DNA from: Abditibacterium sp.
Lineage (GTDB): Bacteria; Armatimonadota; Abditibacteriia; Abditibacteriales; Abditibacteriaceae
DNA length: 64,000 bases
Reading direction: 5' to 3'
NCBI GenBank assembly: GCA_965199495.1
Contig: CBDASK010000003.1
Span: 1,152,001-1,216,000, forward strand
In this document: piece by piece, positions 6,146 through 64,000 of the stretch
Layout of the letters: every line of letters begins with the position of its first letter
Position numbering within the stretch: the first letter of the stretch is position 1
Notes under the pieces: model-generated
Seen by the model: only the letters and a program-made list of their open reading frames with translations
Database searches by the model: none
Told to the model about the DNA's origin: nothing
Program-made: the position numbers and the translations under genes

Positions 6146-6290
6146 TCATCCAAATCATTCAGGATACATCTCTATAATTTTGCACTTCATTCAAGTCAGC
6201 AATGGTGCGCGAAAAGTTGAGAATTCGGTCGTAGTCCCACTCCGACTAAAAAACTGCACGACAGAGGTTTTGAGCAAATCTTTGTTTTGC
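6146..6290 (-). pseudogene. comM: Decayed comM/yifB 3' end fragment (third copy)
   Basis: Frameshifted translation gives KDLLKT..QF and YDRILNFSRTIADL, matching the C-terminus of the copies at 13794 and 44495; ends in tcatccaaa like 44495. Confidence 0.75.
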
Positions 6291-6488
6291 TCATAATCCC
6301 AATCCTTATTCTAAAGAACGACAAACAAAGTTATATATTGGGTGGTCTTCTAATCACGAAAGAGCGAGCGAATACCGGGCCTGCTGAAGATGTGCCTACG
6401 TCTGACAACACCAATTTCTGATTTGGGAAATTATTAGTGTCCGAGACTTTTACAACCTCTTCAACAGAACATGACCACGCGGAACTTA

Positions 6489-7367
6489 GAGTCTGTGCTC
6501 GAAAGGAGTCATTTTCTACCATTCGGGTTCCAAGGTATGCAGTATTTTATCGATCATGGCCCATAGCATCCAAGCTCGGCTGAGATAAGTGTGGCCTTCG
6601 TAGTCTTTGCTTAATGCTTAAGCGCCGGTAGTAATTCATCCAGCCAAAGCTGCGTTCCACAACCCAGCGCACGGGCAATACCTCGAAGCCCTCTGCTCCG
6701 TCGTTGCGCTTAACGATTTCCACCTCGAAGCCAAACTGCCGCTCCATCTTCTCCTGCCACCCCCGACCCGCAAAGCCGCCATCGGCCCACATCACATCCA
6801 ATGACGCGCACATCGACTGCCCAACTATGCGCCAGAATCTCGCCTCGGCTCCTGCGCGTTCGGGCACACTGGCAGGTAAAACTAAAACTTCAAGCCAGTA
6901 GCCCAGAGTGTCCACCACAACAAAGCGCTTGCGTCCGCTCAGGCGTTTGGCTCCATCATAGCCGCGTTGTAGCAAACAGGAGTGCCCCCTTTTGATACCA
7001 CTTTGACGCTCTGACTATCTGTGATAGCGGCTGTAGGTGTTGCTTTTTGCCGTGGAATGTGCGCACTTCTTTGTGGAGCGAGGTATAAAGTTTGTCTAAC
7101 ACGCCGTTCCAGGCCCGGCGATGGTAGCAAGAATACACCGTGCTCCAATTAGGAAGATCATGGGGCAAGTTATGCCATTGACATCCGGTGCGCGCGATAT
7201 ACAAGATGGCGTTGACAATCTCGCGTCTATCCACGCTCGAACGACGCCCTCTGGCGCTTTCGACGTAAGGCCGCACCTCGGCCCACTGTTCATCTGTCAA
7301 ATCGGTATCGTAAGAGCGGCGCATCACAACTCAATTTGACTCCATTACTCCTTTCGAGCACAGACTC
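6489..7367. mobile_element. IS5-family insertion sequence, 879 bp
   Basis: Perfect 21-bp terminal inverted repeats GAGTCTGTGCTCGAAAGGAGT (6489-6509 / 7347-7367), flanked by TA (6487-6488, 7368-7369). Confidence 0.9.
6516..7324 (-). pseudogene. IS5-family transposase, frameshifted
   Basis: Split over several frames: YDTDLTDEQW..RTGCQWHNLPHD (DUF4096-like), TDSQSVK, GYDGAKRLSGRKR..VDTLG..WADGGF..RWVVERSFGW. A 7-bp duplication (6608-6621) breaks the RLSKDYE motif. Confidence 0.85.
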
Positions 7368-10300
7368 TATGAAATGTATGTTGTGGACCAAAATATCACT
7401 GGATTTTGCAAGTAGCTTTGCAATCGATCCCATAGATCGGGGCGCATCAATAGTTCGCAGCCGATAAAACGTGGGCACTGCTCGTCCATTCCACTTCCAA
7501 TAGAACGCACAGACCAATGACGAAAGACAATGCCGATGTCGCCAGAATCATCGACAAGATGAAGTCTTTTCGGCCAATTGCCAGGCGACAAGCCAAGCCA
7601 CGCCGCAATCTGTGGAGAGAGAGACAAAATCCAACTCTCCCCTAACGTATCTTGGATTTCATCCAGCCCCACGATGCCGCCGCATCGAGAAGGATGCAAG
7701 TGCCCGTGTTGTGCAATTGCATCGTCAGAGCCAATGAACCAATCCTGCGGGTCACCTTGAATGAAGGGATATCCGTTCGCTGAGGGCAAGTCGGATGGCC
7801 CACGCGAAATTAGGGCACCTTGTAAAGTCCTGATCGAGGAAGATAGATACTGCTCGGAGTAAGATGTAACATCACTACCAAGTTCTTCTTCGATAGCAGC
7901 CAGTCTGATCCAGCCATTGAAGACAGAATTTTCTTGAACGGCGTTGGGAGTTGCAAGCAGTTCCACTTCTTGGCTCGAAACAGCGTAAAGCTTTCGGGGA
8001 AGCGGTAAAAACGGACGGGGAATCCGGCTGTTCCAAAGAGAAGTATGTAATCGTATGGAGGAAGTAACTCGTTGAAGTAGCCCCAGTGTAGATTCCGGTG
8101 CCCAAAGCCCCTGACGCACTAAATGGTTGTCAATGTTGTCGAGTAATTCTTGGAAGCTCGCTTCATATATCTCTTGATGCCACCAAAAACACCGAGTTGT
8201 CGGAGCATGGGGATGAACGCGGCTCTTGGCGGATTTCATCAACTCGCCGTCTCTGATTTGGTGTCTTTTGCTGGCGTGGCTTTGTCCCTGCCAAATAGAT
8301 TCGAAATGTTGGATTACAAGAGATGGAAAGTCGGGCCAAACTCTCTTGATTGTATTCGCACGATTGCCCCAATCCAAAGCTGCAATCTTATTCTCAAGAC
8401 GAGGATCGAGAGTCGGCACGTGGTCTACGTGATCCGACAGGAAAGGTAAGTGAGATTTCACTTGGGTAAATCTTTCTAACAGAAGATTCGCCGTGGCTCG
8501 CAGAGCGAAGTGTTTGCATTGTCGCAGCGCAGACAGCTCGTCATACAGAAACTCCGTGATAGGATATGGTTCAATTTCGCTGTTCCAGAGAATTTGCAGA
8601 CAGTGAATCGCCGTTGTTCCATTGATATCGGATTTGAGTAACTCCTTGATCGGAATTTTTAAAGTCAATGGGGCGGTCTGCAAAACGGCACAGACGCCAA
8701 CACAAGCCGCTTGACGCCTTTTATATTCGGGATGACCTAATCGAACCAACAAAAGAAAACTCAGCGCTTCATCAGGTGTCCATTTCGGGACTTGTTGCGG
8801 TTCATAAACCGCAAATGTGCGGTAGCCGGATCCGATGTCAGGTAATCGGGTTTCCAGAACGCGACAAACCTCCTCCCAGGCATCAAAAGCTAAGTTGGGA
8901 TTTTGGTGCCGCGCGCAGAACTTGATGAGGTTTTGTGCCATACCATTAAGATATTCCTTATTGGCGTAGAAGGCGACCTCATTAAATAACACCTCGAAGG
9001 CGACCGGAGAATTTAAATCCCTGGCTTGAAGTAACCAAGATTCAAACTCATTTCCTCCCAGGAATTGGTAGCCGCCCTCGCTGCGCGAACTTGCGTAAGC
9101 CAATGCGAAGGCCACGGCTGCCAGCCATATTTTGCCATAGCGTAAGAAGCCTTCTCCCAAGTGTCCCAGAGGAGTTGCGCCATGATAGAACAGATTCTCG
9201 CGTGCAAAGTGGCGAAGTAGTCTTAGCACCTCGCCCTCGCCCTCACCCTCACCATCATCTTCAGCCAAAGCCAATAGACGATATCCGAAAGCATTGACAA
9301 AATTATCCCAGTGCCCACTTTCCTCTTTGGAGTTGTAAGAATGAAACGAACGGAAAATCGACACCAAATCCGCAGGAGTCGCGTTTGGAGGAAAAACTGG
9401 CTCCCATACAGGCTTTTTTGTTCCTTCCAAAGAAGATTGATGCGCAGGCGGTGAGGGTTGTGAATTCTCACTGGCTTGTGCCTCGCTCACTTCTACTTCT
9501 TCGAACTCATTCTCAGGAGGTAAAATAATGTTCCACTGCGCTGCGAACTCTCGAACAAGTTCAAGAGCCTCTAAGGGACGGCTTGGGCCATCGCCTTCGG
9601 CTTGGGCCAAAAAGTTTTCTGTAGCGCGTTCACCCCATTCGTTATGGACTTGACTGCCACGGCCCTTCTCCATCAAACAGCTCAGTGTTTCCAAGCGACT
9701 TTGGGCCTCTCTCTTCACGTCATCACCATATTCGCGGGAGAGAGCAGGAAAAGGGCGAGTGGCGTCCAGAAAGGTGACAATCAGTGGGTCACAGTCGTCT
9801 CGCTTGCGAGCCTCGTCCAAAACAGATCCGAGGGCCTCATTCAGCATCCAACCGGTCTGATCATCGTCTTGACGCAGAGTTTGAGCCATAACATGGACGG
9901 CGCCGACAAAATCAACGCGCAATAGGGCTTCGAGCCACGAAATCGGCAGACGATTAGTGCTACGGCCATCCGTATGCTTCACCACTGCATCGGGTAAACG
10001 TTGCACACGACAGCACAGACTTTTAGCGCGTTCACCATCGAGATCGGCCAAAAGCGTTAATGGATCGAGGATTTCGTAGAGGGAAATGTCTTTGCGAAAT
10101 CCATACGCCGAAAGAAACTGAGCAGACTTCTCCCAAGCTGTGCTTGCTTCTTCGACACGCTCTGTCGCTAAGAGCGCGCGAACCCTCCAAAATTCATTCT
10201 CGGCGTGCGTCTCATAGTATTGACTATGCTGTTGCCAATCATCGGCCAGTCCTAACAAAAATCTCAGAGCCGATTCTTTGAGTTGAGGCTCATTGGCTAA

Positions 10301-13300
10301 ATTCAGCAAAGACTCAAAAAGGCGAATAGGAGCAAAAGGCCCATTGCCTGACCTATCGAGCCAAGTCGTTGTCTCATAGGAGATGGTGCGAAGAAAAGAT
10401 AAAGTCTGATCCAGAACATCAGGATGCCTTATTAGCGCAGTAGCCCGTCCAAGAATGCCAGTTATGACCGAGTGAATCTGATACAAATCACAGGCTCGCG
10501 GGTTACCCTCGAAAGGCTTTATATCGTGAGCCAAATTCTCCAGAGAGGCTGAAATAAGCTGCTCGGAAGGCAAAGGAGCCGAGTTGGAATCTGCGCCAAC
10601 TTGATCTTCTTGGCGGCGCAGGTTTTCAGCTTGCATAAGCTGAGGGACAAACCGCAACCACTGACGATACCAACCAATTCCTTGTGGCAAGGCTTTGGTG
10701 GTCTCCAAAAGAGTTGGATTCGTCCAAGAAAGCAATTCATTTATCCACACCCAGGAATCGACTAAAAAAGTGTTGGGGTGTCGCTCTGAATTCAAAGACT
10801 GAGCTAAATCCGTTAGCTGTTGGAGTGTCGGTTCAAATGCAGATAGCAGCGTCGCGTCGCAACTTAAAGAAGCACATTCAACCACCAATTCCAAAGGCGG
10901 TGAGTAAGTCAAGGCGAGATCGGCAGCCTGCCGCGCTTCAGTAAACCGAGCGGCACTCAAGTAAGCACGAGCGACTTCGACTTGGATTAGAGCCACGATT
11001 TCTTGGCTATAAGCACCTGCGTCAGCCTGCATCCCAATCAACTCCTCCAAAGCCTCCACACCTATGACTTCCCTAACAGTAGTGATGTAGCCGCGTGCGC
11101 GACCAAGTGGGTAATCGTCGTGAATACTACGGCGCGCTGGCGCGCCGTTAGGAGCTTTAGTTTGCTGACGATCTCGACCGAATTGCCCCAACCAATTGCA
11201 TAGCCCTTGCTTACAAACATCCCAACCAAATACCCGTAACTCGCCTTGAAATTGTGCGGAGCTTTCTAAATCGCTAAAATGCGATTGGTATGAACCTTCG
11301 GTCGTTGTATCAGATAAACCCAAATATTCTGCCCAAGGAACGGATTTCCCCTCTCTATCTCCAATCGAGCAGAGAATGAGACCCTCTTGGCGAATCATCG
11401 TAGGACGGCCATCAAAAAGCAGACGCTCACTCAATATATCCGCGCCATGCACTTGAGCCAGGGTGCGCCCATATTCGAGCATTTCCAACTTGCCCTCGAA
11501 TACCATGCTGGCGTAGCGCAGATGAATGAGACGACACATCGCGGCCCAGTCACCTAATTCAGTGGCAACTGCTAAACCTAAAGCAATGCTGGAATTGATC
11601 GCTTGTCGGGGTTGGCCAGCGGCGATACTGTGAGCAACGAACTCGGTTTCAAGGTATTCAAGAACTTGCGCCCCGTATCCAGCCCGCCGCAAATTAGGCA
11701 GTAGAAATCGGTAGGCTTTGGCATCGAAGTAAAAAGGGCGTTTGCGGAGCCAGTCAATTAGCGGCTGCAAAAGCTGAGGCAAAGTTTGGGAGCCTCCTTG
11801 AATCCTTTCCAAAACGAAACGTCGAAAACTTTCGTGGTAGATGCGAATGCCACCTTGAGATGAAGTTTGCTTGAGGATGGGCCGCAACCGTTTCAACCAT
11901 CCTTCAAGGCGATGACCCAGCAAAGGGAAAATCTCGCGCAACTCGTCGGATTTCAATCCGAAATCGACTACCCCCAAAAGTTCGGCGGCAAAAACAGCAC
12001 TGGCGTCTTCCTTCTCCAGAGCATGAAGTAAAAAGTCATAGTAATTAGAAATTCGGCCAGAGAATGCCGGAAGTTCGTTCAGCTTCTCGTGCCAGAAAAC
12101 CGCGCTCTTTTCTGCACCCAATTGAAGCAATTCCGCACAAAGAAACGTGGCGTAAAGTGGATTACCTTCGCATCGCTCATGTAATTCACCCACGATTTCA
12201 TTCCAAGCTATATCAGCGGCTTCGTCTGGCTGTTCCCATCTTCTGGGCACCAGATGCCCAGAGCGAGACAATACGGTCTTGAGTTCACGCCGCAAGGCCA
12301 ACTCTTCAACATCGGAGAGCGACCAATCTGGCACCACAATCTCTTGCGTCCGATCTCGGATCGGGTCGAGATGTTGCCCCGGTTGGGAACCTAAAATTAG
12401 AGTTACTCCTTCAGGCACACGAAGCGCTTTGAGTTGTTCGATGATATCCACATCGCTCTGGCTGAGATCGCGCTCTTCGCTCAAAACACGCGCGATATGG
12501 TCGAGGCCATCGACAAAAATAATGACTTGCCTTGTCGAACTACTCGTCACTGCATGAGGAAGTAATTGTTCAAAAGCAGCCGCATCTGCGGCGTATATCG
12601 GTTGATGCTGCGCTCTAAGAGTCGGCGCATTTTCTATAAGTTCGACGATGACATTACCCCACATCGCGTTCGTCGTGATGCGCTTCTGAACTTCGACATC
12701 GCCCGGCTCCAAATAACAGTAGTGGCGCGCCACTAAATGCCCCGCCTCTCTCAATTCTCGGCTTAAAGATTCTTGCAGCCAGGATTTGCCAGCTCCAGGT
12801 AAACCTGTCAGCAGAATCAACTCGCCATCTGCAGACTCTATTTTTTGATGCAGATGATCCTGAAACTGAGAGCGGCGAACAAACTCTTTTTCTTCGAGTG
12901 GAAAGCGTTGTGCGACTCGCCCAAAATCGCGCCGCAAGCGTAGAAAGGTTTCCAAGGAATCGACCGTAACCTGACCATCTTCCACTCTGCACTTCTGTGC
13001 TAACCACATCATACTCGCCGCCACATCTATTGGAGTTCGTTCCTGATTCGGGTAGCGACCAATACCAATTCTGTCACGCAAAACCTCAAGGATGAGCATT
13101 TCCAAAGCACCAGGCTTACTAAAGTCGTTGGAAATCGCTGGGCACTTCAACTCTAAAATAAATAGGGATGCAAATTCAACAAAATCCTCGCGCGTGATGT
13201 CAGGTGCATCTTTCAAAGGCTTCCATCGAGATTCTTCTCCGAGAGGCCAGATTTCTTCAACGTTGAAGCGAAATGTCGAGGTGGCGTGACCTTCGAAGCT

Positions 13301-13732
13301 GCTGGAAACGTTGGCATTCTCTAAGAACCCCAAGACACTTGCGTCCGTGGGGTTCAGCCAAGTCGCACAAAATCGGTATTGGGACGCTTGCGAAGCGCCT
13401 GCATCACGGTGACTGCGAATAAGATCATCAATGCGCGCCCTATTTCGGCGCGTAGTTAAATCTTCCAACTGGAACTGTTTCGTAGCATCAGCGCTATGCT
13501 TAATCTGCCGCCGCGTATGACCCTCCGAGTTAGCAAGGGCAACGTCATCGAACTTATCAGTTTTGTGGATGAGCTGATTCGCAGTGAGAACACCTTCCTG
13601 TGCAGCCACAGTTTTGAGCATCAAGTAACAGACAACTGCATCTTGGTAGGTGTAACCACGCATAGCGGCTTCGAGGCTTGATGGGGTTAATGGAACAGAG
13701 GGAGCCAGAATTGTGGAAGCAAGTGAAACCAT
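7367..13732 (-). CDS. 2121-aa STAND NTPase with N-terminal Cap4-like PD-(D/E)xK nuclease (Avs3-like architecture)
   Basis: RGYTYQD..FDDV..QIKHS nuclease motif; Walker A GLPGAGKS; Walker B IIFVDGLDH; GNPLY; YHESFRRF; very long helical C-terminus. Confidence 0.8.
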   Translation of the reverse strand: MVSLASTILAPSVPLTPSSLEAAMRGYTYQDAVVCYLMLKTVAAQEGVLTANQLIHKTDKFDDVALANSEGHTRRQIKHSADATKQFQLEDLTTRRNRARIDDLIRSHRDAGASQASQYRFCATWLNPTDASVLGFLENANVSSSFEGHATSTFRFNVEEIWPLGEESRWKPLKDAPDITREDFVEFASLFILELKCPAISNDFSKPGALEMLILEVLRDRIGIGRYPNQERTPIDVAASMMWLAQKCRVEDGQVTVDSLETFLRLRRDFGRVAQRFPLEEKEFVRRSQFQDHLHQKIESADGELILLTGLPGAGKSWLQESLSRELREAGHLVARHYCYLEPGDVEVQKRITTNAMWGNVIVELIENAPTLRAQHQPIYAADAAAFEQLLPHAVTSSSTRQVIIFVDGLDHIARVLSEERDLSQSDVDIIEQLKALRVPEGVTLILGSQPGQHLDPIRDRTQEIVVPDWSLSDVEELALRRELKTVLSRSGHLVPRRWEQPDEAADIAWNEIVGELHERCEGNPLYATFLCAELLQLGAEKSAVFWHEKLNELPAFSGRISNYYDFLLHALEKEDASAVFAAELLGVVDFGLKSDELREIFPLLGHRLEGWLKRLRPILKQTSSQGGIRIYHESFRRFVLERIQGGSQTLPQLLQPLIDWLRKRPFYFDAKAYRFLLPNLRRAGYGAQVLEYLETEFVAHSIAAGQPRQAINSSIALGLAVATELGDWAAMCRLIHLRYASMVFEGKLEMLEYGRTLAQVHGADILSERLLFDGRPTMIRQEGLILCSIGDREGKSVPWAEYLGLSDTTTEGSYQSHFSDLESSAQFQGELRVFGWDVCKQGLCNWLGQFGRDRQQTKAPNGAPARRSIHDDYPLGRARGYITTVREVIGVEALEELIGMQADAGAYSQEIVALIQVEVARAYLSAARFTEARQAADLALTYSPPLELVVECASLSCDATLLSAFEPTLQQLTDLAQSLNSERHPNTFLVDSWVWINELLSWTNPTLLETTKALPQGIGWYRQWLRFVPQLMQAENLRRQEDQVGADSNSAPLPSEQLISASLENLAHDIKPFEGNPRACDLYQIHSVITGILGRATALIRHPDVLDQTLSFLRTISYETTTWLDRSGNGPFAPIRLFESLLNLANEPQLKESALRFLLGLADDWQQHSQYYETHAENEFWRVRALLATERVEEASTAWEKSAQFLSAYGFRKDISLYEILDPLTLLADLDGERAKSLCCRVQRLPDAVVKHTDGRSTNRLPISWLEALLRVDFVGAVHVMAQTLRQDDDQTGWMLNEALGSVLDEARKRDDCDPLIVTFLDATRPFPALSREYGDDVKREAQSRLETLSCLMEKGRGSQVHNEWGERATENFLAQAEGDGPSRPLEALELVREFAAQWNIILPPENEFEEVEVSEAQASENSQPSPPAHQSSLEGTKKPVWEPVFPPNATPADLVSIFRSFHSYNSKEESGHWDNFVNAFGYRLLALAEDDGEGEGEGEVLRLLRHFARENLFYHGATPLGHLGEGFLRYGKIWLAAVAFALAYASSRSEGGYQFLGGNEFESWLLQARDLNSPVAFEVLFNEVAFYANKEYLNGMAQNLIKFCARHQNPNLAFDAWEEVCRVLETRLPDIGSGYRTFAVYEPQQVPKWTPDEALSFLLLVRLGHPEYKRRQAACVGVCAVLQTAPLTLKIPIKELLKSDINGTTAIHCLQILWNSEIEPYPITEFLYDELSALRQCKHFALRATANLLLERFTQVKSHLPFLSDHVDHVPTLDPRLENKIAALDWGNRANTIKRVWPDFPSLVIQHFESIWQGQSHASKRHQIRDGELMKSAKSRVHPHAPTTRCFWWHQEIYEASFQELLDNIDNHLVRQGLWAPESTLGLLQRVTSSIRLHTSLWNSRIPRPFLPLPRKLYAVSSQEVELLATPNAVQENSVFNGWIRLAAIEEELGSDVTSYSEQYLSSSIRTLQGALISRGPSDLPSANGYPFIQGDPQDWFIGSDDAIAQHGHLHPSRCGGIVGLDEIQDTLGESWILSLSPQIAAWLGLSPGNWPKRLHLVDDSGDIGIVFRHWSVRSIGSGMDEQCPRFIGCELLMRPDLWDRLQSYLQNPVIFWSTTYIS

Positions 13733-13793: not shown

Positions 13794-14291
13794 CTATCCG
13801 AATAGCTTCCGGTCGAACGCTCTGTAATTGATCGCTTCCGCAACGTGATGCATCTCTATATTTTGTGCGTCATCCAAGTCGGCAATCGTGCGCGAAACTT
13901 TCAGAATACGGTCATAACCGCGCCCCGATAAACCAAATTGCGCGATAGCGGTCTTGAGTAAGTCTTTAGTTGACGCATCCATTTCACACCATTGTCTCAA
14001 CTCTTTAGCTCTCATGCGCGCATTACAACTTACGCTCGAACCTTCCATGCGAGCCGTCTGTTGCGCCCGTGCGCGTTGCACGCGTTTTCTCACGGTGGCA
14101 GAGCTTTCACCTACTCTCTTGCCCATCAATTCTTCGGACGAAAGTCGCGGCACCTCAATGTGAATGTCAATGCGGTCGAGCAATGGTCCCGATATGCGCG
14201 ATAGGTATCTACGAATCTGCGGAGCCGTGCAAGTGCAGGGTTTTACATCTGGTGAACTCGACGTATTACCCAACAGGTTTCCGCACGGACA
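13794..14291 (-). pseudogene. comM: comM/yifB 3' half (copy 1), starting at the CPCG motif; 5' half absent
   Basis: CPCG..CTC..QIRRYLSRISGPLLDRIDIHIEVP..GLSGRGYDRILKVSRTIADL..HHVAEAINYR; no AAA Walker A region upstream. Confidence 0.9.
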
Positions 14292-14301
14292 CCAACGCCA
14301 A
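14281..14301. other. Putative att junction (copy 1)
   Basis: 21-mer CCGCACGGACACCAACGCCAA, identical at 44985-45005, spans the point where comM homology stops. Confidence 0.75.
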
Positions 14302-14370
14302 ATTTCGCTCGCCAAATTCACAAACTCGTCACAAACGTTAGATGCGAGCTACTAATATGTGAGCGGGGTT

Positions 14371-15009
14371 TTAGTCGGTCAACTCAATCGGGCGGAAATA
14401 GCCCAAGATACAGCTCACGTCGCGCACGCAGATTTGGATGTGGTTGAACTCGCTCACGCCCGCGCCCTCGTAAATCGGCGCGCCTTCCCAGAAAAGCCCA
14501 CGCACAGTGTCATAAGCGGGCAACCCACCAGCATCGCGTATTCGGTGAAGCGAGTTTGCGACGGCACAGTCGAGTCGGCGTAGTCGCAAATTTTTCCCGT
14601 TTGAAGGCAGAGGGACGCGGTTAATTTGCGAGGATAAAGCCAACTCGCCATAGGCTTCTTGAAGTTGAGCTATGGCGCTACTATCCGCGAGGTCAAGGCA
14701 CCTTTTCAAATTGAGCACCGCTCCCAACACAAAAGGTTTGACAATTTCCCCACGCGAGTTGAGTCCGCCAGAGGCCCGCTCCTGAGCGAATTGGAGCGCA
14801 CGCTTTGGATTGCTTTCCCAAAAGTAGATACCTGAACCCAGCCAGTCGTAATCGTTGCGGCTCGATTCGAGATGAGTCACCTCACCACGGAGAATCGCTT
14901 CGCCAACGCTCTGGTCGCAACCGTGAAAGCCAATGATGGGCGAGGGCAGAAACTCGTAATTAGCCCAGCGCATGGAGTCGAGCGTGGCCGTGTTTTCAAG
15001 AAGGCTCAT
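14371..15009 (-). CDS. DUF3990-like / ADP-ribosyltransferase-fold protein, putative toxin (copy 1)
   Basis: GFHGC..NDYDWLGSGIYFWE..HIQICVR motifs; close paralog at 45069-45707. Confidence 0.6.
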   Translation of the reverse strand: MSLLENTATLDSMRWANYEFLPSPIIGFHGCDQSVGEAILRGEVTHLESSRNDYDWLGSGIYFWESNPKRALQFAQERASGGLNSRGEIVKPFVLGAVLNLKRCLDLADSSAIAQLQEAYGELALSSQINRVPLPSNGKNLRLRRLDCAVANSLHRIRDAGGLPAYDTVRGLFWEGAPIYEGAGVSEFNHIQICVRDVSCILGYFRPIELTD

Positions 15010-15299
15010 CGCGGTGAAATTTGGGGAGAGTGCTCAGGGTCAGGAGTTCCATCACCGTTTGAAGCCCCATTCGAGTGCGCGCCGTTAGCCGTAGCTGCGG
15101 CCTCTTCCTGCTCTTCGAGGCGCTGTTGCTCCATCATTTCGTAGTAACCGATGTCACGCAGCAATTTCTCTGCAACCGCAGGGTCTTGGATCATACGCTC
15201 ACGGAAATGGGCAGCAGCCACGGTAAAGCGATCGGCTTCTTCGCTTGGCGAAAGCAATGGACCATCTTTACCAGAAGTTAAAGGTTTGGTTTGAGTCAT
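15006..15299 (-). CDS. Small helical protein, putative antitoxin partner (copy 1)
   Basis: ATGA overlap with the downstream gene; AGGAG RBS; paralog at 45704-45991. Confidence 0.65.
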   Translation of the reverse strand: MTQTKPLTSGKDGPLLSPSEEADRFTVAAAHFRERMIQDPAVAEKLLRDIGYYEMMEQQRLEEQEEAAATANGAHSNGASNGDGTPDPEHSPQISPR

Positions 15300-50329: not shown

Positions 50330-50342
50330 CCCAAAGTTGAAT

Positions 50343-51500: not shown

Positions 51501-51530
51501 TGTTAGTTTTTTCCTCGGAGCGATTGGCTC

Positions 51531-52999: not shown

Positions 53000-53060
53000 G
53001 ATGAAAAATTTGAATTTGGTAAGTGTCAGTGCGCTCTTCGGCGCGCCCGGCTACAAGTTC

Positions 53061-53261: not shown

Positions 53262-53297
53262 GACTTTTTCGCCGAACGGAAGGCCGCGCGCTTGGAA

Positions 53298-54467: not shown

Positions 54468-54549
54468 GATGTTTGGTTATTTGGGGAGACAGACTTCTTA
54501 CAAAAGTCCGTTTTCCTGCCGAATGGAAGGCGCAGACTAACGTTCTCCA

Positions 54550-54640
54550 GTAGGGACATGGCCTGCCATGTCCGCTCGTAGGCAAATGTGTGAGCGCAAG
54601 GAAACTTTGACGCGCCGGACATGGCAGGCCATGTCCCTAC
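54550..54640. repeat. GTAG-type REP doublet (REPIN-like)
   Basis: Perfect 25-bp inverted pair GTAGGGACATGGCCTGCCATGTCCG (54550-54574 / 54616-54640); each arm has an internal palindrome. Confidence 0.8.
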
Positions 54641-54653
54641 AAAGAGGTCGAAT

Positions 54654-55487: not shown

Positions 55488-56088
55488 CGCGTTTTGGGCC
55501 ACGTCTATCGCGCACGAATCCGCGTTCTGGCCGCCAAACAGAGGGAGCAACGCATGTGCCGCCATATGCCAAAAGTTCAAGCGTTTTCACTGTCTAAACA
55601 GGAGAAACTTCCCCCTAAATCAAACAACTTTAGCGAAATTAACAAAATGTTCTAAAACATCGAATCAAAAGCCGTGATATTGAACTTTCGCGCTTAACGT
55701 TCGGTAAGCAAAAAAGTGAGTTCGCTTTCCGCGCATGATCTCGGACTTCGATAATGAGTGAGTTTGGCTCGTGTTGTGAAGCATTAGGAACAGGAAACTC
55801 ACGCGACCTATGATGTCTCAGGCCGATTCCATCGCGGAGCCGCCAATGCGCGATATTGGACGGTTGGGCGAGACGACCCAAAGCTGGCCTAACTTGTAGC
55901 AGGTGATAGGAACTTCTCGAAAACGGTCGGTTTCGAGAACATCGAAGCGCGCCTATCGAAACACAGACGCGCTTTTGTTTCATCATCGGGTCCAACCTGA
56001 TTTCTTCTTGATTCATCGAGTTGGGCACTTTTCCTTTTTTTACTCTCAGCCAGATTCGTTAGCTTCGATCGCCGCCTATCGTGCACTT

Positions 56089-56403
56089 TTAGGCGCTCTT
56101 TTCTTCTTCGCGTGTGTTGCTTGCTAAGAGATGGGAACCCTCGATAACCCCGTCAATCATCTCAAGTTTGTGCATTTCTATGTCAGCCAATGCTATTTGC
56201 AGCGCGTTCTCGCCTTTTTCTGTTATCCAGTAAAACTCCTGCCATCTGTTCAAATAGCCCTTCTCCTGCAACCAGCCTAACGCGTCTTGTGTCGACGAGA
56301 CTGCATCGGGACAACCCTCATCGCGTGCTTTTGCGTCAATTGGCATCGTGGAATTTTTGTAATCCCTGATTGCGTGTAGCGTTCTCCGCTGAGGACCAGT
56401 CAT
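56089..56403 (-). CDS. Hypothetical protein, possibly winged-helix
   Basis: LGWLQEKGYL..YWITEKGENAL pattern. Confidence 0.45.
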   Translation of the reverse strand: MTGPQRRTLHAIRDYKNSTMPIDAKARDEGCPDAVSSTQDALGWLQEKGYLNRWQEFYWITEKGENALQIALADIEMHKLEMIDGVIEGSHLLASNTREEEKSA

Positions 56404-57019
56404 TACCAATAAGTTTAATAAGAAAGCGCGCTCGTCTTCTGATGGGCGCGTTTTTCTGGCGCCATCTCATTGAATCACTCGAAAGGGTTGGGGGTTCTAC
56501 TATCTTTCACTGAGCGCGTTTCACGCCTGTTTATGGTCTTCATAAGCTGCTCTAAAATCGCAGTCTGAATGCTTGATGGAGAATCCCGTAAATTATCGTG
56601 GGCTTTGGAGTGCCCCTGTTCTAATTGTTCCTACAGGGCAAAAGCGATGCGCCTTTTCTGGGGGTCGAGTGTGTTTTGTATGATGGTAATTTTACCCAAA
56701 CGTTAACCCCTATGCGGAAGCCGTGTTGGGAAACCGCTTGTGATTAAAAGACTTTGGCGGCTCTGGCTTCAATCGTTGGGCGCTGGAAGCGTCACCAACT
56801 TTCACCAACTTGAAAAGACTTGAATAGTTCAAGATTGAAAAAGATTGATTGATCAAAGTTTGGCCGTCGCCGAAAGTGCCCAACTTTACACAATTCCGTT
56901 CATATCCACTTCTAATAACCTTATTTCTGTATTACCTATTAACGCTTGCCAAAAGGGAACTAAGATTGATTTTGAGGGCATTATATAATTAGGAATTAAA
57001 GTCCTCTCCCGACGTATTT

Positions 57020-57739
57020 ATGTCATATTCCCACACCCGTTCTGCATTTACCCTTATCGAGCTTCTTGTTGTCATCGCCATTATTGGTATTCTGGCAGCG
57101 ATTTTGTTTCCAGTGTTTGCACGCGCCCGTGAAAACGCCCGCCGTGCTTCGTGCATCAGTAATCTGAAGCAGATGGGTTTGGGCATCGCACTTTATCGCG
57201 GCGATTATGATAGCATGAATCCCCATCATCGTCAGTGCCCTGATACCCCCAACGATCCGTTTTGTAAGGGCGCCAGCCCAACCACTCCAACCGGCGTTAA
57301 CGAAATTTGGTGGGCGCCCTACGATAACTCGGTCGACCCCGCCGCCACTGTGGTGACTTCGCAATACAAAGAAGGTTTGTTAATGCCCTACATCAAAAGC
57401 ACGCAAATCTTCAAATGTCCTTCGGCGACCGAATGGCAAGTCGGCTACGCGATGAGCTACATTTCCAACGGGCCGATGGGCAAAAACGAGGCGGAAGTGG
57501 TCAACCCGGGCGCGCTTTACGTGTGGGATCACGCGCGCACGCCGGGATGCGCCGACACGCGCGTTCTGCCGCACGCATCGGATGCGCCGTGGCAACCGTT
57601 CCCTGTCGCATCGGACACCGCGCACACGCATTATCCGTTTCGCCACAGCGAAGGCTTCGTTGGTCTACGCGTGGACGGTGGCGTCAAATTCCGCAAACCA
57701 TCGAGCCTGACCGACGCCGATTTTAACGCACTTTCGTAA
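57020..57739 (+). CDS. DUF1559 prepilin-type N-terminal cleavage/methylation domain protein
   Basis: [51 protein letters not shown]-x9-DG. Confidence 0.9.
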
Positions 57740-58053
57740 TTTTACTTACTCTGTGCCACTAAACCCATCAAGGAGCAGGGGCACGAGTTCTAATTCTTCT
57801 CTAGCTTCTTACAATTCGTCTTAAAACGGTTGTTTATAATAACGTAAGAGAACCACTTGCGCGGGGTTGTTCTGAGCTTTTCATAAAACTTGATTTTGCT
57901 GCTATAAGCCGCGACAACTAGAAAGTGAGTTGACCAATTTTGATTGCTCCCACGCAACGCCCTGAGATTGTCAAAGTTGCAGTGGACATTTGGGCGTTGT
58001 GGCAGAGACAGTTTCTTTCTTAAAGTCCACCCTAATATTAGTGAGTCACTTTC

Positions 58054-60189
58054 TCAGCAACAAGCCACGGAAACCGGCAAAGTCGCGCGATCCGTCGCCG
58101 CCGAAGGCGAAGAGTGCATCCGGTGAGTCGTGCGCAGCGCCAGCGTCGCAGCATTCACGTCTTCAATTTGCGCCGTGACCGCTTTGGCCGATGTTGCCGT
58201 GCCATTGTTGCGTTTCCCCTTGGCGGGCCGATTGGCGTCGGGCGCCTCGAAGCGATAGGTAACGTGAACCATCGCCGTGCGTTGCTTGCCGCGCGGCGCA
58301 TTTGGATCAAACAGCGATTCGACTTCGATAGCCGCCACCAGCTCTTCCACGATGCGCCGTTTGGTTTCCCATGTTAGTTCACCATCACCCGTTGCATCCA
58401 ACTTGAGTCTCAAGCGGTCGAGCAATTCGCCCGCGCTATCCAAGGCGCCCTGCGAGTTGCGCGCGCGCTCCCACTCGCCCAACAACCGCTCGCGCTCTTT
58501 TTCCAGTGCGCTATGCTCGCCCGCGATTTCGGCGAGCTGAGTTTCGAGGTCGCCTTCGGTCATCGCGCCGCGCCGGAACAGGCGATAGAGCGTGGCGCGT
58601 TGCTGTTCATGCCCACTCACCAGTTGATCCAGACGGTCGAGTTCGCTCTTGGCCTTGTCCGGGTCGGCGCCACGCGAGAGCAGTTCGGCGCGCAATTGGT
58701 CGATCACCTCACCCGGCTCCTTGAGAAAGCCCGCGATGTCGCTCCACACCAACTGTTCCAACTCGAGGGCGCGAATGTGACCCGACGAGCAGCGTTTATC
58801 CAACTTGCCGTAGCTCTGGTGTGAGCCGTTCTTGCCGTTGCACAGATAATACTTTCGCAGCACCAAATCGCCCCGCACTTCGAGTCCGGCGCGTTCTTCG
58901 ACCGGCACGCGCTCGAGCTTGCGGCCTTCGCTCACCGTGCCCACGTAGGTCAGGCCGCAGTGGACACACTTGATCAGACCGCGCAGCAGGTATTTGCGTT
59001 TGACGATGTCGGGGCGGCACAGCCGGTTGCGCCGCAGCGTCTCCTGCGCCCGCGCCCACAATTCTGCGTCCACAATCGCCGGAACCGCGCGCTCGATGAG
59101 CACGGTCTCGGCTTGTGTGCTGCCCGCGGACCCCGCGGCTTTGCGCGAGCGGCGTTTGCCCCAGGTGTGGGTGCCCTTGTAGGTCGTCTCGACCAACATG
59201 TTGCGCACGCGCCCTGCCCGCCACACGCCACGCGTGGCCACCCTACGCTTGCCACGACCGGCTTTTGAGTTATCACCGTTGGCGTTTGAGTCGGTAACAC
59301 CACCCTGCCCTTCTGCGTCGTTCGTGTCAGTGTCGTGCACTTTTGCAGCGTGCACATCTGCGGCGGCGCCGTTGACCAAACTCGCCGATGGCGGCACTTT
59401 GCGGCCGTCGCGGGTGTAGGAAGTCGGCACCCCCCGCGCGTTCAAACGGTTGGCGATCTCGATACAGGAGACGCCCTCGTCGCCCGACCAGCGGTAAACC
59501 AGTTGCATCACCTCGACCTCGCTCAGGCCGGTGCGCGCATCAACTTCGGTCGAAAGCACAAGTCTGGCTTCGCGGTCTTTGCCCTCCACGCGGTAGCCAT
59601 AGGGCACGATGCCGCCAAGCCAGGTGCCCTCGCGGGCCAAACGGTGCGTGGCGTCTCGCGAGCGGCGCAGCGTGTTCTCGCGCTCCAGCTTGCCGATGGC
59701 ACTCTGAAAGGTGAACATCGCCCGCCCGATCGGGGTGTCCAGCTCGATGCTTTCGGCCACGCCGTAAACTCGCACGCCCAACTCGTCATGCAGCGTGCGC
59801 GCCGCCATCTCGTTGACCAAAACGTCCCGCCCGATGCGGTCGGACTTGTAAACCACCAGGGATTTGAACTGGCCCGCCCGCGCATCACGGAGCAACCGCG
59901 CGCCCGCCGGACGCGCTTCGAGGGGCAAGGTGCCGCTCACGCCGTCGTCGCAGTAGACCTCGCCCAGACGCCAGCCCCGGGCGCGGCACTCGGCTTCGAT
60001 GCACTCGATCTGGGTGCAGATGCTCTCTTTCTCGCGCTGCAAATCGGTCGAAACCCGCGCGTAGCCCACCACGGTTGGCGGGATGACGTTTTGCGGGATC
60101 ACCGTCTGCGTTGGGGCGAGAGTGTTGGCGATATTAGTCGCAGCAATAGTAGCGGAAGCGCCGTGCGTGGCGCGAATTTGTGAGTTCAT
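58054..60189 (-). CDS. Large serine recombinase (LSR2)
   Basis: Close paralog of LSR1 with all motifs intact; differs mainly in the N-terminus, one internal linker and the last residues. Confidence 0.95.
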   Translation of the reverse strand: MNSQIRATHGASATIAATNIANTLAPTQTVIPQNVIPPTVVGYARVSTDLQREKESICTQIECIEAECRARGWRLGEVYCDDGVSGTLPLEARPAGARLLRDARAGQFKSLVVYKSDRIGRDVLVNEMAARTLHDELGVRVYGVAESIELDTPIGRAMFTFQSAIGKLERENTLRRSRDATHRLAREGTWLGGIVPYGYRVEGKDREARLVLSTEVDARTGLSEVEVMQLVYRWSGDEGVSCIEIANRLNARGVPTSYTRDGRKVPPSASLVNGAAADVHAAKVHDTDTNDAEGQGGVTDSNANGDNSKAGRGKRRVATRGVWRAGRVRNMLVETTYKGTHTWGKRRSRKAAGSAGSTQAETVLIERAVPAIVDAELWARAQETLRRNRLCRPDIVKRKYLLRGLIKCVHCGLTYVGTVSEGRKLERVPVEERAGLEVRGDLVLRKYYLCNGKNGSHQSYGKLDKRCSSGHIRALELEQLVWSDIAGFLKEPGEVIDQLRAELLSRGADPDKAKSELDRLDQLVSGHEQQRATLYRLFRRGAMTEGDLETQLAEIAGEHSALEKERERLLGEWERARNSQGALDSAGELLDRLRLKLDATGDGELTWETKRRIVEELVAAIEVESLFDPNAPRGKQRTAMVHVTYRFEAPDANRPAKGKRNNGTATSAKAVTAQIEDVNAATLALRTTHRMHSSPSAATDRATLPVSVACC

Positions 60190-60280
60190 GGGAGCGGGAA
60201 ACCGCACGGAATTGTGATAAATTCGTGCGAGTATTTTTCCGACGCGCGGGAAAATTTTCTGGTTTCTGGCGCGAGTTACG
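60190..60280. promoter_or_regulatory. Conserved LSR leader (copy 2)
   Basis: Near-identical to 17538-17630. Confidence 0.6.
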
Positions 60281-60452
60281 GGAATTTAAGCACGCTTCAA
60301 AGCACCCGCTTGCCCAGCCCTTAACGTGTGAGAAAAGCGGGTGCCATGACTAAATTCATAATTTCCTAATATGTAAGATGGAGCTGATAGATTGTTGTGC
60401 TATTGCCGATTTGGGTTGGAGATGTCCCTTGCAGGATTTTCGGTTGTCCCCC

Positions 60453-60779
60453 TTACAATGAGTCGTCGGTTGGCGATGAGTCAATGAGCGGTGGATCAAC
60501 GAACGATGGATCAGTGGCCAGCAGGCGCAAGGCCTTAAGCTGGTTCCGCTCGTCGGGCGCGTAAGTTCGCACCAGACGCAATGCTCCACCGGCAGGCGGA
60601 TTTTGGCCGACCGGTTCTTCCGACGTGCCGTTTTTCAAGACGCCCGTCTTAGCGCGCGACGGGGCTTCCGTTGCGTTCTCGATATCACCGGGGGCGCGCG
60701 ATACTTCCGGGGCCACAGGAACCGCTTCCTGACGAGAAGAAAGACGCGAAGAAAAAGGCAAAGAGTGGCTGTGTGTCAT
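60453..60779 (-). CDS. Small conserved ORF upstream of LSR2 (candidate directionality factor)
   Basis: LRLVRTYAPDERNQLKALRLL motif shared with 18513-18806. Confidence 0.6.
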   Translation of the reverse strand: MTHSHSLPFSSRLSSRQEAVPVAPEVSRAPGDIENATEAPSRAKTGVLKNGTSEEPVGQNPPAGGALRLVRTYAPDERNQLKALRLLATDPSFVDPPLIDSSPTDDSL

Positions 60780-60994
60780 AGCAGTTGAAATTTACGAAGC
60801 GCGTTTGCTGTGAGCGAGCGTTCTCTGCGCAAAGTCGGGCAAGTAGAAGATGAAGGTTTTTCGACCTTCGGTTTTCCCGTCGACAATCTTTAGCGGCAAG
60901 TTCCAAAGGTAGTTCCTTTTTCGGATTCCTTTTTCATTTATTTTCTCCGTCCATTTCTCATTCCGTGCTTTTCGCCAGTAGCGGGGCCAGTAGC

Positions 60995-61051
60995 GGGGGC
61001 AGCCCCACCACCCCCACCCCTAAAAGGGGTGGGGGTGGTGGGGCTGCCCCC
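60995..61051. repeat. Perfect 27-bp GC-rich inverted repeat with a 3-nt loop
   Basis: GGGGGCAGCCCCACCACCCCCACCCCT-AAA-AGGGGTGGGGGTGGTGGGGCTGCCCCC. Confidence 0.9.
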
Positions 61052-61851
61052 CTTAGGCTGAAAACGGCGATAAAAAAGGGCACCAAAATCTGCCTCGCAC
61101 TCTCCTCGCGTTCTTCTCGCGTTGAGGTTGGATTGATCGCCTCGACCGCCTCTGAGGTGTAATTTCAACGTGGTATTTTGGAAAGAGGAGGATTGGCAGC
61201 CGTTCTTTGGAGCGAATTTTCACGAGACTTTTCTCGACAGAACTTTTCGAGGACGCTGGCAAGCGGATCTATATTAACATGGTTTGGCTCGCCGCTTTTT
61301 TCCAACAACGATCCCAACGTGAAGGTTCTCGCGCGAAGGTTCCACCGGTTTGCGCGAAAGTCCGGATGCTCAGATTTGGCCGACTAATATGTCAAAAAAC
61401 ATTTCGTCAAATGTTAACACTTTGTATCAAAAAGAACCATAGTGGAGATCGGCATGGCACGATTTTCCGTTCGTTTATACGCCCCCTTATATAGAGGGCG
61501 GCATTGCCGAGACGATCTTTCGGTGCGCGCCGCGATTATCGTGGCAAGTTGCGATGAAGCGGTCGTCACGATCGAACGGGTAAAGTTCGTTGAACACTTC
61601 AGTTGTCGAGATTTAGCGGTCGATGTTTTTTAAGAATGCCGCGAATTACAATTGGCAAGAGCCGATTAACGAGATGTATGCAAAGGTCGGCGCGATGTTC
61701 TGAAAACCACGGAAACAGACATGTGAAAACCGATCTTTGGATGCGCCCGTTGAGTTCGCTCGCGTTGAACCACTCTTTAGGATCAAGAACGCGCGATGAT
61801 GGTCTCACTTTGGTGGCCTGATTTATGTGCGCGATGACAACGATGACAACT

Positions 61852-62925
61852 CTACCGGCGTGACTTACGTGCATCAGCAGTTTTTAGACGCAATGCTTTT
61901 CTGCGCTCGCGAATGAAAAACGTGCGTGTTTCTGGATCCGGAAACTGTTGCTTCAAGCGCTGTAAAACGCTCGACAAATGCACATGGCCCTCCCACGATG
62001 CGTTTTTGAATGCGCTGTGTTTCACGCCCGCCCTTTTGAGGGCGTCCCGGTAAGAAGGAAAGGATATCTCCGCCGGATCTTTTCCGAAACAACTGTCGCT
62101 GGGGCCAGTGAAAATTGCGTGAGCGTCGGTTATAATGAGGTTAATCAAAACGCCTTTTTCTTGAAACGCGACCACAGCCCCGCTTTCGAGTAGCGCGATG
62201 GCGTCGCGAGCCTGGGGCGCGCCGTCGCCATCCGCCCCCCAACCCAAATCGAACCAAACCAACTCGGTGGAAAAGTCATAGATGAAATGCAGATAGAGTT
62301 TGCCCAGCCGCTCCGGCGCGGCAATCGGGTAAAATGATTGAAAGACAAGTTGCCCCGGTTTTACACGCTGGCGAGACTGCTGATATTTCCGCAACTCTTT
62401 GAGTTTGCCGCGCCGATTCGGAAGTTTTTCGAGTTGCAATCGCGATCCGATGTCCGCCCAATTTGGGCACGCGCCCGTCTGTTCCATGTCCAACACGCGA
62501 CGAATAGTTGTGGCGCCACGAACGATGCCCTCGCGTTCCAAACGCTTTTTCAATTGCGCGCAACTGTCGTCAGGAAAATCTTCCGCCATTGTAAGGATGC
62601 GTTCGCGTTCGACCGGAGAAAGGTTGTGCGGGTGCGCGCGCGCCCGTTTTGAAAGGCTTTGAAGCCCGCCAATTGGATCTTCATAGCGGCGGGCGCGCCA
62701 TTTATAAAACTGGGAGCGCGTCACCCCCGCCTTTTCGCACGCCTCGCGAACGCTTGCTTTTTCGCCAATCAGAAGCTCGACCTTCTCCAATAACTCCTGG
62801 CGTCTCGCGACCGATAATTCTTGGCGTTTCGCGACCAATAATTTCTGGCGTTTTGCGGCCTCTTTCAAGTCTTTTTTTTCTACTTTTTTTCCGGGCCAAA
62901 ACCGTGAAGGCTTTCGTTTTATCAT
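61852..62925 (-). CDS. IS481-like transposase-derived HTH protein (copy 2)
   Basis: SVREACEKAGVTRSQFYKWR; LYLHFIYDFSTELVWFDL; three 24-bp repeats at 62791-62862. Confidence 0.7.
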   Translation of the reverse strand: MIKRKPSRFWPGKKVEKKDLKEAAKRQKLLVAKRQELSVARRQELLEKVELLIGEKASVREACEKAGVTRSQFYKWRARRYEDPIGGLQSLSKRARAHPHNLSPVERERILTMAEDFPDDSCAQLKKRLEREGIVRGATTIRRVLDMEQTGACPNWADIGSRLQLEKLPNRRGKLKELRKYQQSRQRVKPGQLVFQSFYPIAAPERLGKLYLHFIYDFSTELVWFDLGWGADGDGAPQARDAIALLESGAVVAFQEKGVLINLIITDAHAIFTGPSDSCFGKDPAEISFPSYRDALKRAGVKHSAFKNASWEGHVHLSSVLQRLKQQFPDPETRTFFIRERRKALRLKTADARKSRR

Positions 62926-63050
62926 GTTTTTCTAAAAATCGATGGCGACAGTGGAGACGATTTCCCGATCAATTTTACTCGATTTCACGCTTGTGTCCTC
63001 GATCATGCGGATAGCGTTTTTGCCAGCGTTCGCGCTTCGTATTTGTCAGT

Positions 63051-64000
63051 GTGAAACATAATAATCTGCATACCCCCCATGCGGGGATTTCTGGCGCTAT
63101 TGCAGCGCCCAAAACGGCCTCGAAAACGGCCCCAGTGAACGGACAAACGGCCAACGACATTCCCGCAGATCTCAAATTCGCTGAAATCTTCGGGCTGGCT
63201 CGACAAGCCGTTCTGAAAGCGAAAAGCTATGCCAAATGGAGGGCGGAAACCAAAGCCGGCATTAAGGTCATCAAAACGATCGAAGAAGCAACGCCAGGAA
63301 TCGGCCCGAAGAACCGCGCGATCCCAACTTACGGTGCGATGGTCGATTTGGCCAGTAATACATACCTGCGCTCCGAAATTAGTCGGATACAGATGCTCGA
63401 AGCGGACGCAGACGCGATGCAAGAAATCGCCGCAGCCGCGGTTAAAACGCTCGTTTCATACTTTCGCGAGATCAAAGCAAACGGCCAGAGCGTGAAAGAA
63501 TCGCGGGAAGGGGAAGAAGTCACGGCGATCATTGCAGCCCTGCGCAAACAGTTCTGTTGTAGTATCGAGCGCGCGATTAGGGAGGCGGAAGCGGAGTTGC
63601 GTGATTTGCGCCAGCTGCTGGTTTGTATTGCCGCTTGTCCAAATGACGACGAGCGCGAGGCGATGCGCGAGACGGCTGTGCGAAAGTTTTTGGTGACCAT
63701 AAGCCGCGCGAAGTCGGAAGCAGATGCCGCTCTCGGCGATTTTGAAGCGGCGCGAAACAGTGCCGCTGGCATGGTTAAAATTGCGCAATTACACGCGGTT
63801 TCTGCCGTTGAAGAGCTTCCTGCTTTGCCCACAGGGTATTATACACCCAAAGATTTAGCGCGTTATCTCGGAACAGGGGAAAACAACATCCGTGGTCGTC
63901 TTAGCGAAATAGTTAAAAACGGGCGGCTATCAAAAGGCGATTTGAAGTGCGGAGGGCGCTGGGAAATTGATAATTCAATCGTCAATCGGGTCTACAAAAT
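63051..64000 (+). CDS. Partial CDS: helical protein with an HTH_17/excisionase-like domain near the window edge
   Basis: Not in the ORF track. Open from GTG 63051 to the edge: MKHNNLHTPHAGISG..GYYTPKDLARYLGTGENNIRGRL..GGRWEI. Confidence 0.7.
   Translation, partial: MKHNNLHTPHAGISGAIAAPKTASKTAPVNGQTANDIPADLKFAEIFGLARQAVLKAKSYAKWRAETKAGIKVIKTIEEATPGIGPKNRAIPTYGAMVDLASNTYLRSEISRIQMLEADADAMQEIAAAAVKTLVSYFREIKANGQSVKESREGEEVTAIIAALRKQFCCSIERAIREAEAELRDLRQLLVCIAACPNDDEREAMRETAVRKFLVTISRAKSEADAALGDFEAARNSAAGMVKIAQLHAVSAVEELPALPTGYYTPKDLARYLGTGENNIRGRLSEIVKNGRLSKGDLKCGGRWEIDNSIVNRVYK

Follow-up and report, generated by a model that had tools for sequence, protein, structure and literature searches.

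Stacked serine-recombinase islands at comM in an Abditibacterium genome, each likely bringing a spare 3' half of the gene

Why would a genome carry several 3' halves of comM in tandem, each behind a large serine recombinase (LSR) or the remains of one, and what has become of the gene itself? The question is raised by a 64,000 nucleotide stretch of an Abditibacterium genome (G000:C3:1152001-1216000, from the 4.8 Mb genome G000), which is referred to here as the window and in which positions are counted from its first nucleotide. A first-pass annotation of this sequence described two in-frame halves behind an identical 21 bp junction, each accompanied by the same two-gene module and by an LSR or LSR tail, and a third, decayed copy, and proposed that each element carries a replacement half that restores comM on integration. 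All of these features are present, on the minus strand.

There is one whole comM (yifB; TIGR00368, 601 bits against a cut-off of 362) in the genome, at G000:C3:1255883-1254336, 39 kb to the right of the window, where the annotation had suggested that it be sought, and its 3' half is another variant. Besides it there are three intact displaced 3' halves, at window 44995, window 14291, and C3:1121176, and one relic. The half at C3:1121176 (half D) is 31 kb left of the window, behind a third recombinase, LSR4. All four intact halves (A within the gene, and B, C, and D displaced) begin at the same codon. Outward from comM, the array consists of half A, unit E1 of 57.8 kb, an arm and half B, unit E2 of 30.7 kb, an arm and half C, unit E3 of 45.1 kb, and an arm and half D. 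Its far end is set only by half D, a GC step, and the absence of a further relic in the genome, no conserved host gene having been found behind the last half among the loci fetched. The parts of the array that lie in the window, where a P arm is an arm of the element type, are these:

6133-6316, minus strand: decayed comM 3'-half relic, frameshifted, about aa 447-510, marking an inner boundary of unit E3
13794-14291, minus strand: comM 3' half H_C, CPCG to stop, 165 codons and stop, frame intact, divergent loop type
14281-14301, minus strand: 21 bp junction, with 10 bp of the E2 P arm, the putative TG core, and the start of the half
14292-14352, minus strand: P arm of E2, with an ATATTAG box about 60 bp upstream
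14371-15009, minus strand: module gene A, 212 aa, predicted ADP-ribosyltransferase fold
15006-15299, minus strand: module gene B, 97 aa, no family match
15354-17660, minus strand: LSR1, the E2 large serine recombinase, whose true start is probably nearer 17400-17550
44495-44995, minus strand: comM 3' half H_B, 166 codons and stop, frame intact, E2 left end, comM side
44985-45005, minus strand: second copy of the 21 bp junction, the E1 P arm and then half H_B
45069-45991, minus strand: second copy of the two-gene module, its small gene 95 aa
45974-46155, minus strand: relic LSR 3' tail, continuing into the start of the module
58054-60207, minus strand: LSR3, the E1 large serine recombinase, intact and with 77% identity to LSR1, with no P arm or half directly behind it
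60208-64000, minus strand: E1 continuing beyond the window through a primase-helicase, LexA-ImuB-DnaE2, a Dpd cluster, and DUF3846 up to the whole comM

The halves at 14291 and 44995 both start with TGT CCG TGC GG and match Mg_chelatase and Mg_chelatase_C in profile searches. The identity of the two junction copies extends over exactly 21 bp, of which 10 are non-coding and 11 coding; this sequence occurs twice in the genome. Contigs from the short reads of run X2, possibly the source sample, span the junction at 44995 with 0 differences and also span the in-gene junction. In run X1 (share 0.05), 44976-45868 and 45930-46372 were matched with 0 differences at a depth of about 6, with no identical piece of this host's comM among the matches listed; this is a weak hint of the E1 end in another host and is not used as evidence. 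The relic at 6316-6133 is identical to the 14291 half at 130 of 187 columns, with an nhmmer core at 6286-6163 (E 2e-15).

The statement that the two halves in the window differ mostly at synonymous sites holds, with 72% of synonymous and 12% of non-synonymous sites different (pS 0.72, pN 0.12; Fisher p 8e-35) and a dN/dS of about 0.05. This excess shows that the halves were once part of a working comM, and it does not show present function. The displaced halves have 0-1 changes at 104 conserved columns, as do the in-gene copies, and relaxed selection on the displaced halves is therefore unsupported. Because so few of these columns have changed, the displaced halves should be young, refreshed, or recycled, which are indistinguishable. 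The P arm provides an in-frame start a few codons before CPCG (GTG at window 14292-14321; ATG in genome G004, L007:17204-16683), so that half C and the displaced half of G004 could, on sequence, each yield a C-terminal ComM fragment of 173-175 aa; in half B, a stop separates the P-arm start from the half.

The best explanation, and a likely one, is that LSR elements have been stacked at the NP|CPC site in comM. Each has an LSR region and an element arm at its end, and each probably brought a spare 3' half that rebuilds the gene. An element would enter as a circle, its attachment site continuing into the spare half, and integration would rebuild comM and push the old half behind the element. 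The crossover would be at the TG of the first Cys codon, and the spare half would begin with a P-type arm written as codons, in the xLL loop of the zinc finger.

The relatives of this genome support such a layout. At least two matches to the half are present in 12 of 13 Abditibacterium genomes (in the remaining one none is assembled), against 0 of 14 genomes from other genera of the family. The replacement arrangement is seen in its single form in G004 and G006, where a whole comM is followed by one LSR element of 33-40 kb, akin to E1 or E3, and then by an arm and a displaced half. In G004 the last codons of module gene A are kept before the arm, and an AbiEii/DUF6088 pair occupies the module slot. 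Contig G010:C10 has 18 same-strand copies of the half in 52 kb, mostly 3' remnants, with no LSR among them. In G012 the copies lie on either strand and are spread across more than 1 Mb, and a truncated LSR is head-to-head with a P|half junction (G012:C1:263336-264709); this array has probably been broken by inversions. In the sister genus, G017 and G025 have comM split at the same site and no whole comM. In G020 (C1:2145603-2176103) and G104 (C36), the split or duplication of comM is at a different site, around aa 180-220, and G020 also has a distant LSR.

Among the best 80 LSR-family loci, a comM piece lies within 10 kb in 51; most of these pieces have one end at NP|CPC, and the loci occur in Bacillota, Acidobacteriota, and Chloroflexota. 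There were 45 loci with comM pieces outside the family, of which 44 genomes were scored (40 in a first set and 4 added, G089 being unscored). None of the first 40 has a whole comM, 33 having both pieces and 7 one side only. Among the added genomes, G103 is split, G104 and G105 are complex, and G102 (Bryobacteraceae) has a spare half beside a whole comM, the only whole copy among the 44 scored genomes. A Clostridium locus (L096:11544-13837) has, at 900 bp from its split comM and in inverted orientation, a second comM fragment (aa 253-372) whose left arm is identical.

The direction of replacement can be read by comparing the 5' part of comM with its halves. Between G005 and G006 the 5' part is 98% identical in amino acids and the in-gene halves 75%, the value for the displaced halves of G006 being 92-94%. 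Between G010 and G012 the 5' part is 93% identical, the in-gene halves 79%, and the displaced halves 91-92%. The entire in-gene half is foreign in G006 and G012, from the first loop on (70-72% at the nucleotide level). In these two genomes it is thus the in-gene half that appears foreign by sequence and the displaced ones that are host-like, as replacement predicts. This genome and G004 make a weaker case than the other two pairs, with 95% for the 5' part, 91% for the in-gene half (76.0 versus 84.7 at the nucleotide level, p 6e-4), 95% for halves B and D, and 90% for C. No drop is seen in the control pairs G002/G010, G001/G008, G003/G009, and G013/G022.

The attachment site itself is informative. 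In G017, the two element arms carry an 8 bp inverted repeat, 14 bp either side of TG, and because this repeat centres on TG the core is probably there. Symmetry of the arms about the 2 bp core is clear in G017 and in LSR4-type arms; the best position of the host-arm motif is at shift +5 and the next at -5. A GT core for E1 and E2, which would give one more shared base, was dropped, GCT being in register only with TG. After the core, other genera read CPCG-x-x-G/S/T-D, whereas 11 of 11 Abditibacterium in-gene halves read CPCG-x-L-L and have a longer loop. The same LL appears on translation of the element arms that are joined to comM in G017 and G025. On an arm profile trained on 34 arms from outside the family, of which at least two were misfiled, the 11 Abditibacterium in-gene starts score -1.2 to 4.0 and the 17 native starts -8.8 to -3.0, with no overlap, these genomes being kin and not independent samples. 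No native-type start is found in 24 Abditibacterium copies with an intact start. In G102 the whole comM has a P-type start and the displaced half a native one, which shows the founding state, the first replacement step. A target with two B arms, as in attB, is present in G017 and for the displaced half of G102, and absent in Abditibacterium; since every half there starts with a P-type arm, the target looks like B|P' (attL-like) and the far junction like P|P'. Later insertions would have to use this B|P' target, and the attL-like target is the new point here, as read from the sequences. The frame of LSR4 (L002:1074-2843, which is G000:C3:1122843-1121074) passes through the core into half D, so that its C-terminus would be altered on integration, as in G003 and G006.

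The recombinases LSR1, LSR3, and LSR4 exceed the Pfam cut-offs for PF00239, PF07508, and PF13408 (Resolvase, Recombinase, Zn-ribbon), and the catalytic serine motif aligns. In a 22-row tree the LSRs adjoining spare halves do not form one clade (approximately unbiased (AU) test, p 7e-8); LSR1 and LSR3 belong to a clade whose sister is the gene-breaking enzyme of G017, and LSR4 is of another lineage. A 37-row quick tree was made separately. From comM outward, E1 contains DUF3846, DpdA-K, LexA-ImuB-DnaE2, a primase-helicase, LSR3, 12 kb of stress genes, the LSR relic, the module, and the arm. E2 contains DUF3846, a DISARM/Druantia-like cluster, a primase, LSR1, the module, and the arm. E3, which includes an integrase-less member of the array (E3a), has an Avs-like gene, an IS5 element, the relic half, HNH- and TIR-type genes, type I restriction, a PifA-like NTPase, a helicase, and LSR4. 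DUF3846 is the first gene after half A, half B, and the in-gene half of G004, whose element is the closest match to E1; small open reading frames (ORFs) upstream of the LSRs are also partly common with that element. The LexA-ImuB-DnaE2 mutagenesis cassettes of E1 (L004:9896-15711) and G004 (C3:1687578-1693342) are 88-91% identical, and the defence block beside them is swapped, Dpd in E1 and type I restriction in G004.

This composition departs from the first-pass picture in three respects. One unit is not one element, as in E1 a complete LSR is followed by 12 kb of stress genes and these by the relic of an LSR tail. The segment at 46155-45974 comprises this tail together with the small gene's ribosome-binding region, and it matches the LSR1 tail at 118 of 182 columns. 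The cargo, for the most part anti-phage genes, is not all defence, the region at 46.3-57.7 kb being catalase-, dehydrogenase-, and SDR-type genes. Nor does a strict order with the oldest unit at the left hold, the left-most half being intact beside an intact LSR while the relic lies nearer to comM. Because this intact half and LSR lie beyond the relic, the units probably arrived as composites. Neighbouring units may leave and arrive together, handing a spare half to new recombinases; an element might insert inside the array and then excise with everything up to comM, gaining a half. Such a route would also explain LSR3 and the relic LSR end in E1, and the relic half inside E3 with an intact half beyond. 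Deletion at the recombinase end would leave 3' relics, and later homologous exchange would mix the halves. The order of the array would then date composite arrivals and not single units. The circle joining 14292 to 44995 that the annotation had proposed to look for would need two P|half sites to recombine, because E1 has since taken the left end of E2.

Several observations weigh against the best explanation. The control pairs G019/G021 (p 0.008) and G022/G024 (p 0.002) also differ between 5' and 3' parts at the nucleotide level, and AU tests on a 440-nt tree of halves did not reject concordance with the host in any of five tests (p 0.05-0.37). The two halves of G004 are identical from nt 49 to the stop (450 nt), with 10 differences in nt 27-48, which is beyond what site-specific exchange alone gives. 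Decay is not monotonic along the array, here or in G002:C60. Arm symmetry in the window is weak: 8-12 of 24 positions agree (8-9 for the arms of E1 and E2, with GCT in register), compared with 7 in the host arm. The arm motif coincides with the Leu-Leu codons, a concern to which the kinship of the genomes and the misfiled training arms add. The matches listed for contigs of runs X2 and X1 (window 40001-60000 and the comM stretch) include neither a circle nor an empty site nor a joint that crosses an element, contigs being a form of data that drops rare forms. In the account of Rutherford et al. (PMC3783163), serine integrases recombine only attP x attB without a directionality factor, and the canonical enzymes refuse the attL x attP pairing. 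The attL-like target would be explained either by a relaxed enzyme rule, by a permissive cofactor, or by homologous recombination.

The last of these leads to the strongest rival, in which spare halves are carried as proposed and entry and exit are mainly by RecA-type single crossover in the 500 bp half, the LSR having made the founding junctions and being now minor. The near-identity of the G004 halves, differing only in the 22 nt beside the core, fits this well, as do the inverted and scattered copies in G012, and the attL x attP problem disappears. Halves A, B, and D are, moreover, mosaic, with 41 runs in 85 informative codons and 0 of 5000 shuffles as low. Homologous exchange therefore also acts, although gene conversion after integration suffices for the mosaics. 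Against a mainly RecA-driven traffic, LSR1, LSR3, LSR4, and the LSR of G004 are all intact; the in-gene halves of G006 and G012, at 70-72% nucleotide identity, are too distant for easy single crossover; and the P arm is identical at 19 of 19 bp in E2 and G004 yet precedes quite different loops, so the loop does not travel with the arm. This rival is considered unlikely. For the annotation's proposal the outcome is divided: restoration of comM by an element-borne half is supported by the layout and by the foreign in-gene halves, and purely site-specific stacking is contradicted by the mosaics and the identity in G004.

It could also be that these are ordinary gene-breaking islands, that the host later repaired comM by transformation or gene conversion, and that the spare halves are scars. 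Such islands are what is seen in G017, G025, and all 40 outside genomes of the first set, none with a whole comM; comEC is present; and the identical halves of G004 resemble a copy. Repair would have been needed independently at the same codon for each unit in 12 genomes, however. The halves run as far as the stop codon, and element genes come next, in three cases the same gene. The foreign, non-host in-gene halves of G006 and G012 are also contrary to repair, which is thus quite improbable. Tandem duplication of one island followed by divergence, suggested by the LSR (77% aa), module, XRE gene, DUF3846, and ATATTAG box that E1 and E2 have in common, is largely refuted and very improbable, given wholly different cargo (Dpd, DISARM/Druantia-like, and type I restriction-modification), halves B and C near saturation at synonymous sites, an LSR4 of another lineage, and the closer relationship of E1 to the G004 element.

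Beyond the likely stacking of elements that bring spare halves, a wider proposal can be made tentatively, with somewhat less than an even chance of being right in full: that comM is a permanent landing pad, the arm of a founding island having become fixed genus-wide in the codons of the zinc-finger loop, at which at least three LSR lineages integrate and excise by attL x attP, each event swapping the C-terminal third of ComM, the transformation helicase, and extending arrays that reach some 20 units or more.

The resemblance to known systems is partial in each case. The SCC and SCCmec elements at rlmH combine a serine recombinase, an intact target, tandem composites, a primase/helicase beside the recombinase, and restriction-type cargo. 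The array here is SCC-like in being a tandem composite with the target intact, and differs in its site and in its LSRs, whose CcrB scores of 79-108 bits are far below the cut-off of 900. There is also one recombinase per unit here, and the site is in mid-gene, so that a third of the gene must be replaced. Tyrosine-integrase elements replace the ends of genes and displace the old one, as in tRNA and tmRNA islands and in e14 and phage 21 at icd, and tyrosine chemistry uses a homologous core; by comparison, a serine recombinase with a 2 bp core would have to write its binding arm into codons. The tandem islands at ssrA in Dehalococcoides, as described in PMC3146451, are alike in their CcrB-like serine recombinase, integrase-less members, accretion, and placement of the newest island beside the target; they differ in having a tmRNA target and a 20 bp repeat, where here there is a 500 bp coding half under purifying selection and the recombinase is at the far end. 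No counterpart of the DsiA/DsiB pair was found, there being no second small serine recombinase among 127 ORFs scanned. Streptococcal integrative and conjugative elements (ICEs) at rumA, and CTn5 at CD1844, are described as having a serine integrase with the att site in its own 3' end, as in LSR4; CTn5 makes a gene fusion at its target, and all 29 serine-integrase ICEs of the survey disrupt theirs (PMC4701971, PMC3158075). No conjugation module was found here among the ORFs scanned, in which relaxase, coupling protein, and type IV secretion have no Pfam match, several ORFs being without a family.

As an integration target comM is common, Mg-chelatase/comM being the target class of 12.4% of predicted site-specific integrases in the account of Durrant et al. 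(PMC10083194). The comM-targeting LSRs described there, and that of phage sr1WO (PMC9203015), are of the same target class and have the same resolvase/recombinase/zinc-ribbon organization. The WO prophages are described as leaving the target gene split (PMC9203015), and reviews describe comM insertion as inactivating (PMC12378983, PMC11472951); unlike these, comM is whole here and halves accumulate. In ComM the zinc finger lies inside the ATPase domain and the arginine finger near the C-terminus (PMC11612176). No published serine element restoring comM with a spare half was found in a search outside which subscription papers and supplements lay.

The remaining features of the window, mostly cargo, are:

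6487-7369, minus strand: IS5-family element, 26 bp terminal inverted repeats, two-ORF transposase
7367-13732, minus strand: NACHT/STAND ATPase, 2121 aa, Avs-like (PADLOC Avs1b E 7e-19, partial), cargo behind half H_C
19245-21857, minus strand: DUF3854 primase/polymerase-helicase-like replication gene of E2
24857-25732, plus strand: XRE-type regulator, common to E1, E2, and the G004 element
25807-39951, minus strand: defence cluster, with DruE-like helicase, DrmMI/type IIG methylase, DrmD/BrxHII SNF2 helicase, and PLD-like gene
40218-42956, no strand assigned: GNAT-PIN and ASCH genes, PADLOC PDC-M11A/B candidates
43072-43608, plus strand: DUF3846 gene, the same gene behind the in-gene half here and in G004
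46303-57739, no strand assigned: 12 kb of stress/metabolic cargo, not defence, with catalase-like, two Zn dehydrogenase, SDR, HbpS-like, DUF4142, and DUF1559 pilin-like genes

The two copies of the module are 77% identical in the 212-aa genes and 65% in the 97/95-aa genes, and a third copy of gene A elsewhere in the genome is likewise behind a small gene. The structural model of gene A (pLDDT 92) has its best matches among ADP-ribosyltransferase folds, including toxins of toxin-antitoxin systems, with modest scores (best Foldseek E 5e-4; best Z 8.1, rmsd 4.3 over 145 residues), and no sequence match in the PDB. There is a weak match to PD-T4-9_A (E 4e-6 over 54 aa). CmdTAC (PD-T4-9) comprises an ADP-ribosyltransferase toxin, an antitoxin, and a SecB-like chaperone, while the module has two genes only, with no third beside it. 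From the model, it is likely to be a toxin-antitoxin (or defence) pair in which gene A is the toxin; gene B, by its position, is likely to be the antitoxin.

No phage structural genes were found among 29 ORFs compared with PHROGs, in which there are primase/helicase and integrase matches and one weak helix-turn-helix match to the small terminase family. There is no tyrosine recombinase match among the ORFs scanned, the recombinases being of the serine type, unlike the integron IntI.

The ATATTAG box is at 14352, 17667, 17713, 17948, 18060, 18513, 24785, 45055, 58032, 60366, and 61384, among other places in the window. It occurs 21 times on the minus and 4 times on the plus strand in the 136 kb array, of 123 genome-wide, and 19 and 1 times in 60 kb of G004, with none on the minus strand of E3. 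The boxes are clustered upstream of genes of the LSR1 type and at a distance of about 60 bp ahead of the P arm, and are possibly a regulator or replication site. There is a 21 bp repeat array at 53027-53261, between two oxidoreductase genes. Many run X1 contigs have loose ends at 51937-51963 and 56072-56096, likely a dispersed Abditibacterium repeat. Long intergenic inverted repeats with 25-40 bp arms are at 18851-19002, 47595-47684, 54550-54640, and 60995-61051.

Island callers that rely on a split target gene would miss islands of this kind, and in Abditibacterium the 3' third of comM is a poor guide to vertical descent. Should the recombinases indeed act on their own product as a target, they would be a natural exception to serine-integrase directionality and could serve in the repeated stacking of DNA at one site. 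Insertion into comM has been read in the literature as islands disabling the means by which the host removes them. The Abditibacterium islands appear to pay 500 bp to keep comM whole across the genus, while close relatives of their recombinases break it. This provides a natural comparison as to whether comM is targeted to silence transformation, or merely for its conserved site.

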